64,000 nucleotides of DNA. It comes from a candidate division WOR-3 bacterium (GTDB lineage Bacteria > Hydrothermota > Hydrothermia > LBFQ01). The stretch covers positions 1-64,000 of the forward strand of contig JBDRWW010000006.1 of assembly GCA_039802605.1 (NCBI GenBank), read 5' to 3'. Of the stretch, positions 9,001-15,000 are shown piece after piece (positions within the stretch are counted from its first letter, which is position 1; each line of letters begins with the position of its first letter). Position numbers: made by a program.

Positions 9001-12000
9001 AAATATCCCCAATCTCACAGGTATCACCTCCTATTACATTCTTTGACAATCCGAATGTCGGGGAATTGTAAGTTGAACCTATGATATAAAGGTACGGAGC
9101 ATCTATTAATACCTCCCAACCATAATCGTTTTCGGCACTGCTTATAAGAACGGTTTTTATATGGACATCAAGGTTGTGGCTAAGTTTTGTCAAGAAAACA
9201 TGTATATCCCCGGCACCGGTAACACCATAAATCGTTCGTGAAGGTGCAATATCGTTGGATTTGGTATAACCGAGAACCAAAATGTTTCCGTTTGGATCCT
9301 CAGTTATGAATGCAGACCTATCCTCACTACTCCCAGATATAAGGGCCACCGACAAAACCGACATAAGATCCGGCGACAGCCTTACAACGAAAACAAGGGG
9401 ATTGGATAAAGATCCGTATATATAGTTTGGCGTTAAGAAGGAACCGTAATCGTAGGTGTGTCCAACAACATAAACATATCCGCTGTCATCCACATGAATA
9501 CCCCTTAGGAAATCCATACTTGAACTCCCTATGATAAATGTGGGGTCTATTATTAGGTCAGATGATGGGTCATAGTTTTCCACCTTGAAGGATAATGTTG
9601 AACCTTCAATTAGAGGGTTAACCTTAACTTCCCTCGCCCCCTGATAAGCCTTCAAATCCTTTATTATAAACCTTTCACCGTTTTCCGCCATTACCTCAAT
9701 TTTTCCGTTTTTACCTTTCAACTCACAACCCGCAAAGTTTAAGCGTATTTTGTTGGGATCGGCATAAGGCTTTATGTGTAGATAGAACTCAAAGGTATTA
9801 CCGGATAGGCCGTTTATTACAAAATCAACCCGGGGATATACATCCTTCAACCGTAGGGATTTAAACATTTTACCGGTGATGGTTTCGCGGGGTCCGAAAT
9901 ATGAGAACTTTCCACCCGTGGGATGTAATCCCTCCACATTACGAACCTTACCGCCTACGAATTCAAGACTTATACCCCTTATGCGCACATCACCCTTGTA
10001 TATCCTTATATCTCCGGATACATTCATCCATATGCCTTTATGCCTTATAAATACCTGCTGAAAGCTAAATCCCAAAATCGCCCAAACCATAGTTATACCT
10101 CCTTTTCCTCACCAATCCAAAACATTGCCATCTTTATCAACCTTTAATATAGCCGCAGTTGAAAGGTTGTCTATACATGTCGTAAAATATATCACCCCAT
10201 CATTGGATACCTTGGCATCGTATAAACCACTCGCACCCAAAGGAGACCAGTAATTCCTCAAAAGCGTTATATTCCCCTCATCGTCAAACTTCACAGCAAT
10301 TATACAATACCCAGAACCACAAGTAGCCACCTCCCCAAACGCAAAGTATTGCCCATCAGGTGTCCTTACTACCTCCTTGAAAGGCCCTCCCCATACCTCG
10401 TTATCAAACGGTTTCCTTATGCACCTATACCACTTTAAATTCCCCAAACTGTCAAGCTTTACTATTAAAGGACAATCTTCCGAAGTGTGCCTCTGTACAG
10501 CCTTCCCAACAAATACCAATCCACCATCATAAGCCTCTACTCCGGCATTCACAAAAGCCCCTATAACCGTATCAAGTATTATACCCCTACTCCAAAGAAA
10601 ATTCCCATTGCTATCAACCTTATAAACCGCAAAACTAACAGGTGCCTCGGGCTCGTATGTAGCCACATACCCAGCCCCATGCTTCGTTATGGTGGGAAAA
10701 ATCGGCTGAATGGCTTTCCTATATGTCGTGTCGCATGTTTCCCATAAAAAGTTCAAATCTGAACCCGTAAATTCATATTTCCTTATGCAGTTGTGAGGAT
10801 AAACTGTGGTTGATATTACAACATAACTTCCATCGGATAACACCTCATTACCCCCAAACCCAATATTAACAGATGAATTCCACATATTGCCGTTTAAATC
10901 TACAAACATTGCGTTTAAGGGTGTTGCTATAACAAACTTATCAACAGATACCCTGTATATACCATCAAACCCAATCGTATCCTTGGTTTTTATCCAAATA
11001 ATATTCCCCCCTCCCGATATGCGTGTTACAATGTTGTATTTGTAGTCCTTTACAGTTAGCATAATATCCCCGTTATCAGATAGTGCTATACTCGGTTTCA
11101 TACAAAATTCCTGCAATTTCACACTAACCACCTTTGTTGAATCAAAACAATAATATTGTGGGTCTGGCTCACAGGCCACCTTTCCCTTTCTGCACCCCGC
11201 AAAAACCAAGAAAAGGGCAAAAGCAAAGAATGCTAACCTTTTCATCTCTTTATAACCTTATAAACTTTATTCTTAACCACAACGAAATATATCCCGCGCT
11301 TCAAACCACCCATATCAATCGTATAGTTCCCGAATTTACCTTCCTTAACCAATCTCCCATTGGAATCGTAAACCTTAAAGTATCCGGAAGGTAGGTCAAT
11401 CTTCAAAGTGTTATGAACCAATTTTGTTTCCATTGGTCGAATACCTGTGAATATAGTCCCAAATGCCTTGTTATCATTCATACCCAAAACCTCCCTATAA
11501 ACCGAAAGTATATCCTCTTCGTCATAAGAAGGTGAAACCGTAATATACGAGACCAATGTCCTCGGTTCTTTACCATAAGTTTCAAAGAAAAAGTAATAAA
11601 CACCCCTGCGGTTGAGCCTAAGGTAAGCCTTAAATGTATCCCTAACCTTCACAGGCCTTACAACCCCGTAGCTTGTCCAAGGCCCTATGGAGTAATAAAA
11701 CCCCATAACGGAATCTGCAAATGGATGGTGTATATCTATTCTTATAATCTCACCCTCAGTATATACATGCTTGTTAAACCTTAAGTACGCGCTAACGGGA
11801 CTTAGAAAAGATAGTATTACAGGTGTTGGGAAAATACCTTCTAAATCCGCATGACCTCTTTCTTTTTCTATTTTCATAAGAGGCTGACCAGAAGATTTAT
11901 TAAATGCGGCTATATAAGTGTATCCATATTCGCGTCTGTTTAGATATACAGTATCCGCCCATAAAACCCTTAAAGCCGAAGGAGACCATATTGCAACGCT

Positions 12001-15000
12001 GTCAGTTAAATAAGAAGGCATTATGTATAATGTGGAATCAATTAGGGTTATGTATCCCCAACTTCTAACTTCCTTCGGGGAAGTTATGGGTATATCAAAG
12101 GGTGCATTGTAATATGTCTCTTCTGGTAGGGTATCAAGAATAGCACCTTCTATAAAAGGAAACAATGATGGATCCTCTTTTATTGCCGTGTGATCCTTTT
12201 CCCATATATCCGGATCCCCGGAGCATGTCCTTCCACCAGAGCCCGTAGGTTGGTTGGAAAATATTTTGGTTTGCAAATCAAACTGGATATCCCTGGCACT
12301 GGCATTTCCATATTCAACCACACCATCATTACACCCAGCACCCATAACATACCTTACGACAAAACATCCCGCTTGGGATTTGGCGGGAAAGGTGCCACAT
12401 TTCCACTCGGGTGTCCAGCCCATGCCAAGTCTTGCAACCTTGATATTCCCCGGTACCGTATCGGATGCAATATATCTATAATACGCCGACCTCCATGCCA
12501 AAACCCCAAAGCCTGTAAGTATGTCATAGTCCATCTGGAATCCCTCGCATACTAAGGGCACTGTCGCCTGAAATGCCAAGCACAAACTAAACAACCTGGG
12601 GTCCAGTATAAAAAGACCACAATTTAACCAACTACCACCATTACAAAAATCCGCCATGGCAGACCCATAAAAAGGCGTTCCAAGGGCCACAAAACCCATA
12701 ACATATGGATTATTCTTTAAATAAATTACACCTTCGGTTTCTAAGCCCGCCCTACTATGCGCGACTACAACTATACTCCTATTCCAAGTAGAATCATAGT
12801 TCCTGTAAATATACCTCCCCAATGAACCTATAAGGGTATCCAAAAGGTTTGTATTTGGCCAAAAAGAGGGACCTTTCCCATCGTTAAAATCGTATAAGGT
12901 CACCATGGCAACGCGGAAATATGAATTTGTCACTAAGTAATCCTTTAAACTCACCATAGAGTTGCAATCCGAACCCATACCATGAACTAATAACACGACA
13001 GGAAGATCTTTTTGCGGTGAACTGGGGGAATTCCAGAATAGTCCCAACCATTTACGATACCTGGGGGAATACCATGTCCAAATCGGATCACCGCATCTGG
13101 GATAGGGGTTTATAGGACTAGGTCCAGGGCCACTTCCTCCCCCACCCCCCGGTGGTGGCTCATCTCCTGAACCCCTTGGCTGGCAAGGCCCCAACTCGGG
13201 GACACTATCCGGATTCGCCCAGCAGCATACCCCTTGGGAATATGGTGGATTAAAGTCATAGCATCGCCCAACATGGCAAATGGGGGCTATATAGTCCATG
13301 CTGGTATCTATACAACACGGGTTTCCTATGTATCCACATATTTCTGAGTTGGGTTTAATATCCGGTGGATTGTCCTTAGGAAACATAACTCCGGGAAGGA
13401 TTAAAAACGCCAAACCTAAGACCCACGGCGTTTTCTTCCTTCTTCCTTTCCATACGTTTTCTTCCTTCTTCCTTTCCATACGTTTTCTTCCTTCTTCCTT
13501 TCCATAGGGGTGTGAATTATAAGGGGGTAAAAAGTTTTGTGCAGGTGCTTTTCAGCGAACGCAACACAACACGAATTTCCCCGTATAAACCCTATGTATT
13601 ACAAACACCTTTCAACCTTATAATTCCCGTATATGAAAAAGGTGGTATTAAAAGTTAATGGGATGACTTGTATGGGTTGCGTATCAACGGTTAGGAAGGT
13701 TTTGGAGAAAAAAGGCGGTAAAGAGGTTAAGGTTTCCTTGGAGGAGGGGAAGGCCGAGTTCCTTTTGGAAAACGGAAACTTGGAAGAAATACTAAAGTCC
13801 CTTGAAATTGTGGGTTATCCCGCCGAGGTTATATCGGAAAATTAACCCTTACGAACATCCTCAACAATCCTTCCATCCCTTAACCTGATAATCCTTTTGC
13901 CGAGTTCTATTATCATAGGGTCATGTGTTGCGAATATAAAAGTCGTTCCAAACTCCTCGTTGAGTTTTAACATTAAATTCATAACATTTAAAGCGTTTTT
14001 GCTGTCAAGGTTTGCGGTTGGCTCATCCGCAAGAACAACTGCCGGATTTCCCACAATTGCCCTCGCAATCGCAACCCTTTGCTGTTGTCCCCCACTGAGT
14101 TCCTTGGGAAACCTGTTTTCCAATCCCTTTAAACCTAAAACCTCAAATATCTCCCCGATTCTTCTTTTTCTCTCCTCGAGCTTAACACCCCTTAAAGCGA
14201 GGATTATTTCAACATTTTCAAAAGCGGTTAAAACTGGTATAAGGTTGTAAGTCTGGAAAACAAAACCTATCCTTTTTAGCCTCAAATCGCTTAAAGAATC
14301 TTCGTCCATTTTTCCTATATCTTTGCCCTCAAACAAAACCCTTCCTTCTGTGGGTTTTTCAATACCGCTTATAACATTTAACATCGTTGTTTTTCCCGAA
14401 CCCGAGGGCCCGGCGAGGACGATAAATTCCCCTTTCCCAATCTCCAAAGTTAAACCGTTTAAAGCCCTAACCTCCTCTTGCCCACTCTTATAAATTTTAA
14501 CAACATTTTCAAGTTTTATCATCCTTTTACCTCCTTAAAATTTCCGAAACTTTAACCTTTGAAGCCCATTTGGCTGGCAAATACCCGCTTAAGACTGACA
14601 TTAATAACAGGAGAAGGGGATAACCTACAATACCCCTCCAATCCCAAATGCTCTTAATTTTTGCCTCTAAAGCAACCCCACCATACTCAATTTCGCTTGA
14701 ACCCAACAAAGACGAAACATCCAAGCCATATTTATATGTTAAGTAATTCACCACTATTGCCAAAAGCAATCCTAAGGAAATTCCTATTACCCCAAGTATC
14801 AAAAATTCCAACATCACAATCCTTAAAATATCCCTCCCCTTAAACCCTACTGCCCTCATAAGACCAAACTCCTTCACCCTTTCCAAAACATTCATAAAAC
14901 CCAAATTAACCGTACCAAACGATATTACGATAAACATAAACACAACCATTACTACGATACCGCTGTAATCCAATATTATTGCACTATAAAGTTCCGGCAT

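Follow-up and report, generated by a model that had tools for sequence, protein, structure and literature searches.

A free-living thermophile probably carries a multi-locus set of contingency switches, one of which, a repeat-number switch on a three-gene operon for T9SS cargo, would lie in the window analysed here (64,000 nt, positions 1 to 64,000 of contig C6 of genome G000). The array in question (13429..13506, minus strand) consists of three perfect 26-nt units, each with an ATG (TRF: period 26, 3.0 copies, 100% matches), and among these ATGs, at 13505, 13479 and 13453, only that at 13479 opens the 745-aa ORF (11242-13479). This arrangement, with the middle ATG alone in frame, had been claimed in an earlier note, and TRF, a reading of the minus strand and the ORFs bear it out. 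Reading from the 5′-terminal ATG of the three-unit array stops after just 29 codons, in an ORF that is out of frame with the gene (13416..13505 with its stop codon, minus strand). The unit covers the start codon and its length is not divisible by 3, and direct reading of the frames shows that a change in unit number shifts the ATG frame relative to an otherwise intact gene, a 769-codon frame being open behind the array. A genome-wide search that allowed up to 4 mismatches found the unit nowhere else.

Upstream of the array lies a promoter-like site, TGCACA-16 nt-TATAAT (13516..13543, minus strand; 10 of 12 matches), and 10 nt separate the end of its −10 box from the first ATG, which thus has the features of a leaderless start, namely a −10 box 6-10 nt upstream and no Shine-Dalgarno (SD) motif. 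A −10-like box stands 7-10 nt before the first ATG in 365 of 1388 long frames of this genome; just one of these 365 also has an SD-like motif, and such motifs occur in 258 of the remaining 1017 frames, against a background of 9.4%. Exact TATAAT peaks genome-wide at 7-10 nt before in-frame ATGs (164 cases), with 1-3 cases at each of most other distances (0-5 and 13-14 nt). Where exact TATAAT-N7-10-ATG sites adjoin long ORFs, 155 of 168 are in frame. In the 13 out-of-frame cases, non-triplet repeats exceeding 2 units are confined to the C6 array and to locus C18a, which belongs to a second protein family described below; a third case has a 2-copy, 10-nt repeat, and the others inspected are small genes or ends of other frames, e.g. 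L34. Because a TATAAT box 10 nt upstream represents the leaderless layout of about one quarter of the genes, the first ATG of the array should be the one used, and with a leaderless start at this position the gene should therefore be ON only with 2 or 5 units.

In the mechanism that we propose, transcription would begin a few bases before the first ATG, producing an almost leaderless mRNA on which ribosomes would start at the 5′-terminal ATG. Each unit adds 26 nt, or 2 modulo 3, such that the first ATG would be in frame only with 2, 5, ... units, and translation would end in fewer than 30 codons with 1, 3 or 4 units. From an OFF array the lipase-like protein would be made without its signal peptide or not at all, and the overlapping downstream gene would probably be uncoupled in translation. 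Slippage during replication, or unequal recombination, would add or remove units and so turn the operon off or on in a fraction of cells. A 1-unit allele, which has no in-frame start that retains the signal peptide and no repeat left for slippage, would be locked OFF, and the assembled genome, with its three units, would be in an OFF or low state. In a 2-unit array the distance from the start ATG to a TATGG motif is 26 nt, the same as in the in-frame homologue at G003:C8. Three units of 26 nt may slip much less often than classical short repeats. In the three-unit array a weak SD-like motif is well spaced from the second ATG, the one in frame, and some expression from it is possible.

Unit number in nature was assessed from Logan unitigs and contigs (k=31) of four hot-spring runs, which were compared with simulated mixed alleles; in the simulation model, the depth of a 52-nt unitig is (n-1) times, and that of a 34-nt unitig (n-2) times, the flank depth. 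All four runs hold repeat-internal unitigs, and their contigs fall apart at the array into precisely the pieces that the simulation of mixed alleles gives. In run X9, depths of 67.7 (52-nt) and 30.2 (34-nt) relative to a flank of ~31 yield n=3, while in run X1, depths of 21.1 and 6.2 relative to a flank of ~16 fit roughly 60-70% n=2 and 30-40% n=3, these shares being derived from mean k-mer depths of the 34- and 52-nt unitigs, with no single read or contig spanning the array. Run X6 contains all 7 pieces expected with a 1-unit allele, including a 34-nt piece that matches 13425-13454 and then diverges (depth 5.9; flank 8.5-10.8) and flank contigs ending at 13454 and starting at 13481, although its depths are inconsistent, being 9 and 3 for two pieces expected to be equal. 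Together, unitig topology and depths indicate that unit number differs within and between natural samples, with 1, 2 and 3 units in X6, X1 and X9, respectively, as read from contigs that smooth over variants and from samples in which co-existing strains could mimic within-clone switching. Runs X1 and X6 possibly represent the source samples. The run rows listed as holding this stretch number 20, none of them recorded as RNA.

The product of the gene, 745 aa when read from the second ATG (11242..13479, minus strand), appears lipase-like by resemblance of its sequence and predicted structure. A signal-peptide-like N-terminus is followed by a Cys-rich region, a Gly-rich linker, the catalytic core, beta-rich domains and a T9SS type A C-terminal sorting domain. 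The core contains AHSRAG (S242) and H430, and 9 sequences share H166, G167, H241, S242, R243, D385, D429 and H430 without exception; a nucleophile elbow, an HG oxyanion motif, the His and an alpha/beta-hydrolase fold can all be recognized in the sequence and predicted model. The best fold match of this model, which is only of moderate quality (mean pLDDT 59), is the lipase BlEst2 (6wpx; E 2.2e-12), followed by PGAP1 and Pseudomonas lipases. By sequence the likeness to the LipA/DUF676/PGAP1-like group is one of resemblance and not of membership, the DUF676 score being 17.1 bits against a cut-off of 20.3. The scores given previously for B. subtilis LipA (E 5.4e-4), ESM Atlas (0.86) and Por_Secre_tail (2.7e-5) were reproduced. 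Assignment to T9SS type A cargo follows from NCBIfam TIGR04183 (24.1 bits; cut-off 23), with Pfam PF18962 at 24.8 bits on the protein, below its threshold of 27, and at 30 bits in a six-frame search. Por_Secre_tail loci number 16, and SprA, the sole T9SS component searched, is represented by a 1842-aa frame on contig C4 (TIGR04189, 374.5 bits; cut-off 200). The second gene of the operon (10109..11245, minus strand; 378 aa, without a known family) starts in overlap with the lipase-like stop, and its homologues come after the lipase-like gene in the C4 paralog and in relatives G011, G009 and G006. In the product of the third gene (7913..10090, minus strand; 725 aa), DUF7948 is combined with a beta-propeller repeat (SBBP) and with a T9SS sorting domain of borderline score (TIGR04183, 22.9 bits against 23); this product is 42% identical to that of the third gene of the C4 operon.

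Repeats of other kinds occupy the same spot in 6 of 7 readable homologous loci, one of the six in frame and five out. When read again, the relatives gave the repeat states and promoter spacing that the earlier note had claimed: five 10-nt units, out of frame, at G003:C59; one 10-nt unit, in frame, at G003:C8; G10 and G7, both out of frame, in G011 and G009; G8, in frame, in G006; and, in all six loci, TATAAT at a distance of 8-10 nt upstream of the ATG. The ortholog in the sister genome G002 has a 100-N gap beginning in the first unit. The poly-G tracts of 7, 8 and 10 share one codon position in three genus-g2 orthologues, and database homologues are annotated to start either upstream of this site (P0012 and P0014) or immediately downstream of it (P0013, P0016 and P0017). 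The C4 paralog is out of frame with a 4-nt repeat, as had been proposed, and the repeat extends to (TTTC)5.75 (C4:111498-111520).

At the 5′ end of the genes for a second, unrelated family of secreted proteins there are also repeats, with units of 10 nt, TTGT or 7 nt. Its member C18a has 2.9 units of 10 nt (C18:780-808) and is out of frame, and its counterpart in G002 has one unit and is in frame; the two lack any substitution over nt 667-2971 (~2.3 kb), next to 52 mismatches in the adjacent 666 nt. The repeat at C18:780-808, together with 4-nt repeats of 3.5 units at C18:7716, C8:48 and C10:21517, contradicts the proposal that the C6 and C4 arrays are the only non-triplet repeats of their kind in the genome, while the accompanying statements that G and C runs are no longer than 8 nt and that four (AT)5 repeats are present were correct. 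A strict automated test counted the top non-triplet repeats that lie no more than 150 nt from where a long frame opens; 3 of 8 were so placed, a marginal enrichment (p=0.066; top three alone, p=0.0019), and 5 of 8 when positions were counted by homology. Because the design recurs as poly-G, 4-, 7- and 10-nt repeats in homologues and in a second secreted family, the lineage appears to have a multi-locus phasome.

An unlikely competitor is decay, in which redundant, dispensable secreted-protein genes are being lost, slippage-prone 5′ ends make a frameshift the commonest first lesion, and the length polymorphism represents dead alleles of co-existing strains. By DNA reading, 11 of 12 repeat-bearing loci are out of frame, as decay would have it, and several loci carry lesions that no repeat explains. 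In the C4 copy the ATG, signal-peptide and body frames are all distinct, requiring two frameshifts, the second of them outside any repeat; this copy looks like a pseudogene from its sequence, as the earlier note had feared. C18a has lost its C-terminal sorting region through a 726-nt deletion relative to its G002 counterpart, and the sole X9 contig has a 2-nt deletion outside the repeat (13194..13195, minus strand; frameshift at about codon 95). This deletion also bears on the annotated lengths of cluster members (745, 714, 676, 580, 578 and 571 aa), which were reproduced but lose their value as evidence of switching: it gives rise to the 676-aa form, with an alternative N-terminus in P0003, and the 714-aa form is a choice of start codon on the same contig, C6. 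Decay is further favoured by the N-terminally shortened annotations (571 and 578 aa) on 16 contigs, compared with 8 for the 745- and 714-aa forms, and by the inability of slippage to revert a 1-unit allele. It does not readily explain why repeats of 1, 4, 10 and 26 nt in one family and of 4, 7 and 10 nt in another, unrelated one, very rare elsewhere in the genome, are found at the same place, nor why close relatives alternate between in-frame and out-of-frame states. Open frames of 625-769 aa persist in eight loci, also behind out-of-frame starts, the broken C4 copy excepted, and the C6 gene is under purifying selection as judged by substitution rates relative to its G002 ortholog (dN/dS = 0.044/0.255 = 0.17). 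Thus, the earlier proposal of repeat-driven on/off switching gains support as frame switching at the 5′ end, from the unit-number differences, the second family, the substitution-free cassette and this dN/dS value, and loses the length classes, the C4 copy and the supposed uniqueness of the repeats as arguments.

Less probable still is a tolerated length variation, in which the three-unit allele starts at the internal ATG at 13479, the purine-rich unit serves as ribosome-binding site, and unit number alters efficiency only. In its favour, a weakly SD-like AAGGAAG in each unit ends ~7 nt before the ATG of the next, the anti-SD sequence CCTCCT is found at the 16S rRNA 3′ end, SD-like motifs occur in about 25% of the genes outside the leaderless class, and arrays of at least two units always retain an in-frame ATG. 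However, the SD-like match is weak, ribosomes arriving from the 5′-terminal ATG would pass over and mask the internal site, and the 1-unit allele of X6 lacks an in-frame start that keeps the signal peptide. Frame also matters at G003:C59 and the other 10-nt loci, since no in-frame start codon lies between their repeat and the hydrophobic core. It is highly improbable that short-read assembly of a metagenome created the number of units, or even the repeat as such, for although the genome was binned from a metagenome, the gap of the G002 assembly falls in the array and Logan contigs break there, repeat-internal unitigs occur in four independent runs, the X9 depths fit exactly three units, and the 34-nt unitig 13451-13484 is possible only with at least three.

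Frame switching by repeat number, the reading that we prefer, leads to a broader one that we offer tentatively, with doubt slightly outweighing belief: that a family of free-living, uncultured hot-spring bacteria has a multi-locus phasome, in which leaderless operons for T9SS enzymes and secreted proteins are gated by 1-, 4-, 7-, 10- and 26-nt repeats at or inside the start codon, cassettes sweep between species (zero substitutions beside an 8% diverged flank), and canonical MutL, for which searches returned none, is not detected. The case presented here comprises several candidate repeat-gated genes in the 1.65-Mb genome of an uncultured thermophile, with an unusual layout in which the start codon of a predicted leaderless mRNA lies inside the repeated unit. 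Because repeat number appears to differ among natural samples, the question is testable with existing hot-spring read sets. Since gene callers assign arbitrary shortened starts and assemblers break at arrays, such loci are systematically mis-annotated in metagenome bins. If the phasome is real, stochastic on/off switching of surface and secreted functions would be a general bet-hedging ecology outside hosts, possibly driven by phages or by exploitation of shared enzymes.

The C6 pattern resembles phase-variation switches, which to date have been described mostly in pathogens. In Neisseria, the opa genes form a multi-copy surface-protein family whose CTCTT repeats follow closely on the start codon, within the stretch that encodes the signal peptide; at any given moment the majority of copies are out of frame, and the paralogues have a conserved 5′ cassette in common. 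The repeats described here are likewise non-triplet, just after the start in the signal-peptide region, and mostly out of frame, and a conserved 5′ cassette is common to the four G003 copies. In contrast to opa, the units measure 10 or 26 nt here and 4, 7 or 1 nt in relatives, a leaderless mRNA is predicted, the cargo consists of T9SS-exported enzymes and the bacterium lives free in hot springs. In lic1/licA of Haemophilus influenzae, a translational switch of (CAAT)n with several ATGs in different frames, repeat number decides which start codon is in frame, and the 10-nt repeat of C18a is similarly preceded by two ATGs, at 720 and at 739, that are in different frames. The C6 array differs in that its start codon is inside the unit, such that each added unit brings one more ATG, and in that the 5′-terminal ATG would be expected to win on a leaderless mRNA. 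Mismatch repair is missing in some pathogens with poly-G phasomes, to which the failure to detect canonical MutL here is a parallel. According to Lin and Kussell (PMC3315296), simple repeats are enriched at the N-terminus of prokaryotic coding regions in 42 sequenced species, certain pathogens being stressed; the present repeats are also near the N-terminus, where a frameshift abolishes the protein, but those of C6 contain the start codon, unlike the short repeats of that survey. Multi-locus phase-variable genomes seem, according to a 2025 review (PMC11868660), to be confined to pathogens and commensals; the review also points to a lack of knowledge about bacteria from other stressful environments. 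As in the poly-G phasomes of Campylobacter and other pathogens outlined in that review, tracts of a hypermutable type are present here in several genes that are unlinked and serve surface or secreted functions, including G7, G8 and G10 at one codon in three genus-g2 orthologues, but in an uncultured thermophile that has no host.

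The 745-aa lipase-like gene (minus strand, 11242-13479) of G000, a candidate division WOR-3 bin of 23 contigs with 41% GC, begins inside three perfect 26-nt tandem units on the minus strand (13506-13429; 3.0 copies with 100% matches in TRF, confirmed in the sequence), which follow by 10 nt a promoter-like site, TGCACA-16-TATAAT, on the same strand (13543-13516). In minus-strand sequence every unit starts with T-ATG-GAAAGGAAGAAGGAAGAAAACG. The array ATGs lie at 13505, 13479 and 13453; only that at 13479 opens the 745-aa ORF ending at 11242, and the first (13505) leads into an ORF of 29 codons. 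TRF, the sequence and the reading of the ORFs thus bear out an earlier note of three 26-nt repeats with one ATG each, the middle one alone in frame. With up to 4 mismatches allowed, no other copy of the unit was found in the 1.65-Mb genome. We regard repeat-gated switching as the probable role of this array.

How the array might act depends on where translation begins. On a leaderless mRNA, the 5′-terminal ATG is the translation start. Genome-wide, there are 164 cases of an exact TATAAT 7-10 nt ahead of an in-frame ATG belonging to a long frame, and 1-3 cases at most other distances (0-5 and 13-14 nt). When the -10 box is defined slightly more widely, it stands 7-10 nt ahead of the first ATG in 365 of 1388 long frames; a Shine-Dalgarno-like motif precedes 1 of these 365 frames and 258 of the 1017 others, relative to a background of 9.4%. 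From this spacing and these counts, leaderless mRNAs are apparently used for about a quarter of the genes, and G000 appears to lean heavily on them while retaining the anti-Shine-Dalgarno sequence carried by its 16S rRNA. By its layout the lipase-like gene belongs to the predicted leaderless class, in which case ribosomes would start at the first ATG of the array. Because 26 is 2 modulo 3, this ATG is in frame solely at 2, 5, ... units. In the two-unit form the distance from the start ATG to a TATGG motif is 26 nt, equal to that in an in-frame homologue (G003:C8), which suggests that two units are the natural ON form. A one-unit allele would offer no start that is in frame and retains the signal peptide, and no repeat on which to slip. 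In the three-unit array AAGGAAG stands well spaced ahead of the in-frame second ATG; given the anti-Shine-Dalgarno sequence, residual expression of this allele is possible.

The protein at stake has an N-terminus that by eye resembles a signal peptide, followed by a Cys-rich region and a Gly-rich linker. Its core carries an HG motif, AHSRAG (S242) and D429-H430, all invariant across nine homologues, and toward the C-terminus come beta-rich domains and, last, a sorting domain of T9SS type A (TIGR04183, 24.1 bits for a cut-off of 23; the Pfam sorting-domain model remained below threshold). SprA and 16 sorting-domain loci supply the T9SS context in G000. Likeness to lipases is weak by sequence (LipA, 5.4e-4; ESM Atlas, 0.86; DUF676, under its cut-off), and a moderate AlphaFold model (mean pLDDT 59) best matches the lipase BlEst2 (E 2.2e-12), then PGAP1 and Pseudomonas lipases. 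The gene heads an overlapping operon with two further genes downstream; this three-gene order is repeated at contig C4, and the second gene stands behind the lipase-like gene in three relatives. As judged by divergence from the ortholog in the related genome G002 (dN 0.044, dS 0.255, ratio 0.17), the gene is under purifying selection.

The lipase-like gene is present at 8 loci in 6 of the 12 genomes of the bacterial family, and reading their sequences upheld the earlier observation that homologues carry 10-nt or poly-G repeats at the same spot in both frame states. At G003:C59 five 10-nt units put the start out of frame (four or seven would restore it), and at G003:C8 a single unit is in frame. 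The poly-G loci are out of frame with G10 in G011 (where G9 would be in frame) and with G7 in G009, and in frame with G8 in G006; in G002 a 100-N gap begins in the first unit. The paralog on contig C4 does carry the GAAA repeat reported for it, (GAAA)5.75, and is out of frame, but a second frameshift lies outside the repeat, in the Gly-rich linker. Among database homologues, P0012 and P0014 start upstream of the poly-G site and P0013, P0016 and P0017 directly after it, the frame state of P0012, P0014 and P0016 being read from annotation only. In JGI metagenome contigs the exact 24-nt leader-plus-unit pattern had 0 matches and alignment of the family recovered only 7 distant loci (23-29% identity); a search of genome contigs with protein P0001 matched a G002-type bin only.

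Variation in unit number was sought in hot-spring metagenomes, the runs that hold this stretch. The data are Logan k=31 contigs only, none of which crosses the array and which smooth variants, and we simulated k=31 unitigs for mixtures of alleles, which reproduced the observed pieces exactly. In the simulation a 52-nt piece has (n-1) times, and a 34-nt piece (n-2) times, the depth of the flanks. Runs X1 and X9 each yielded four pieces: a left flank to 13458, the 52-nt piece, the 34-nt piece (13451-13484) and a right flank from 13477. The depths in X9 (67.7 and 30.2 for the two pieces; flanks 32.1 and 30.5) fit an essentially uniform population of three units, and those in X1 (21.1 and 6.2; flanks 15.6 and 16.6) a modeled mixture of about 60-70% two-unit and 30-40% three-unit alleles. 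X6 gave seven pieces, as the simulation predicts solely with an additional one-unit allele: a flank ends at 13454, another starts at 13481, two 34-nt pieces are added, and one more piece of that length agrees with 13425-13454 before it diverges (depth 5.9 versus 8.5-10.8 for the flanks). Depths in this run are unbalanced (9 versus 3 for two pieces expected to be equal), leaving allele shares uncertain. Coverage in X10 (~4.5) was too thin for unit number and showed only that three-unit-specific k-mers are present. X1 and X6 may be the source samples, and co-existing strains could also produce the mixed picture. Logan is among the listed sources of the full 745-aa protein; in the simulation a k=31 contig can cross the array at two units only, and we infer that a two-unit contig probably lies behind this entry. 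The left-hand Logan contigs of X1, X6 and X9 are all ~5.84 kb and so stop near 7615, within a frame that resembles a membrane protein; we saw no repeat at this point, which may be a boundary of strain variation.

The annotated lengths in the 90% identity cluster, which had been offered as evidence of switching, do not serve that purpose. The sole contig of X9 has a 2-nt deletion outside the repeat (13194-13195) that shifts the frame at about codon 95 and explains the 676-aa member with its different N-terminus; the 714-aa member reflects a choice of start on the present contig. Three short members, one or more of them lacking a start Met, were taken as fragments. We also considered whether the deletion makes up for the third unit: the count of nucleotides returns to frame, but a TAG 29 codons past the first ATG stands in the way.

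A second family of secreted proteins bears similar repeats. The next-longest perfect repeat in G000, 2.9 copies of the 10-nt unit CTCAAATTCT (C18:780-808; locus C18a), lies 60 nt past a leaderless-type ATG that stands 8 nt behind TTGACA-17-TATAAT and does not share the frame of the 489 codons that encode an HExxH secreted protein of no known family; ATGs at 720 and 739, in two different frames, both precede the repeat (C18:700-830). In G002 the corresponding gene carries a single unit and reads in frame. Compared with G002:C12, the locus has 52 mismatches in nt 1-666, within the neighboring gene, and 0 substitutions in nt 667-2971, where the two differ only by a 20-nt indel in the repeat and by the loss from G000 of 726 nt, which removes the C-terminal 242 residues, including the sorting region. 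Over ~2.3 kb, then, no base has changed as fast as the repeat, and the pattern suggests that the cassette was exchanged recently between species, or that the bins are chimeric. None of four G003 paralogues, which share a 5′ cassette and have 2, 3, 3 and 2 units, is in frame, nor is a G008 member with about five 7-nt units. At a further locus, C18b (C18:7716-7729), another paralogue with a frame of 715 aa carries (TTGT)3.5 within its signal-peptide region and would need one more unit to be in frame; its 5′ cassette recurs at the end of contig C8 (C8:48-61).

Across the 12 genomes, poly-G of at least 9 nt gave 27 matches (19 distinct tracts), and long G tracts were not generally concentrated at 5′ ends; after filtering, only two lay at a 5′ end with a recognizable start, in the G011 lipase-like gene and at G002:C4:32767. 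In the latter, G9 (32767-32775) directly follows ATGGTGA and puts the start out of frame with a signal-peptide-bearing frame of >500 aa, which G8 would restore, making it a candidate for a further switch in the sister genome. Canonical MutL (PF01119, PF08676) was above threshold in 0 of the 12 genomes, with controls detected in 11 of 14; two MutS_V-bearing, MutS-like genes are present per genome, and the family possibly lacks canonical mismatch repair. A longer tandem array in the window (26259-27140; period 192 nt, 4.6 copies, 87% matches in TRF) is probably a repeated protein domain.

In favor of switching, one and the same site has independently gained different types of repeat in two families, repeats of this kind are scarce in the rest of G000, close relatives show both frame states, and unit number appears to be polymorphic in nature. 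Its strongest competitor is decay of dispensable genes, an unlikely reading: 11 of the 12 repeat-bearing loci whose DNA was read here are out of frame, three loci bear additional damage (a frameshift at C4, the deletion at C18a and the 2-nt deletion at 13194 in the X9 contig), and shortened 571/578-aa annotations occur on 16 contigs versus longer forms on 8. Against these stand the intact long frames and the purifying selection. A strict test of whether the top non-triplet repeats are enriched by position (3 of 8, p=0.066) is weak alone and was counted against switching. Harmless length variation we consider improbable. An artefact is very improbable.

The proposed mechanism is of the known contingency-locus kind, the closest designs being Neisseria opa and Haemophilus lic1. 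Our literature search found no account of switching by repeats in hot-spring bacteria or in cargo of the T9SS. The closest environmental example that it turned up, in Gracilibacteria, involves 9-nt, in-frame repeats and no on/off frameshifts (PMC6851277). What would be new is the setting, a free-living uncultured thermophile with several such loci for T9SS or secreted proteins, and the layout, in which the start codon of a predicted leaderless mRNA lies within repeat units as long as 26 nt.
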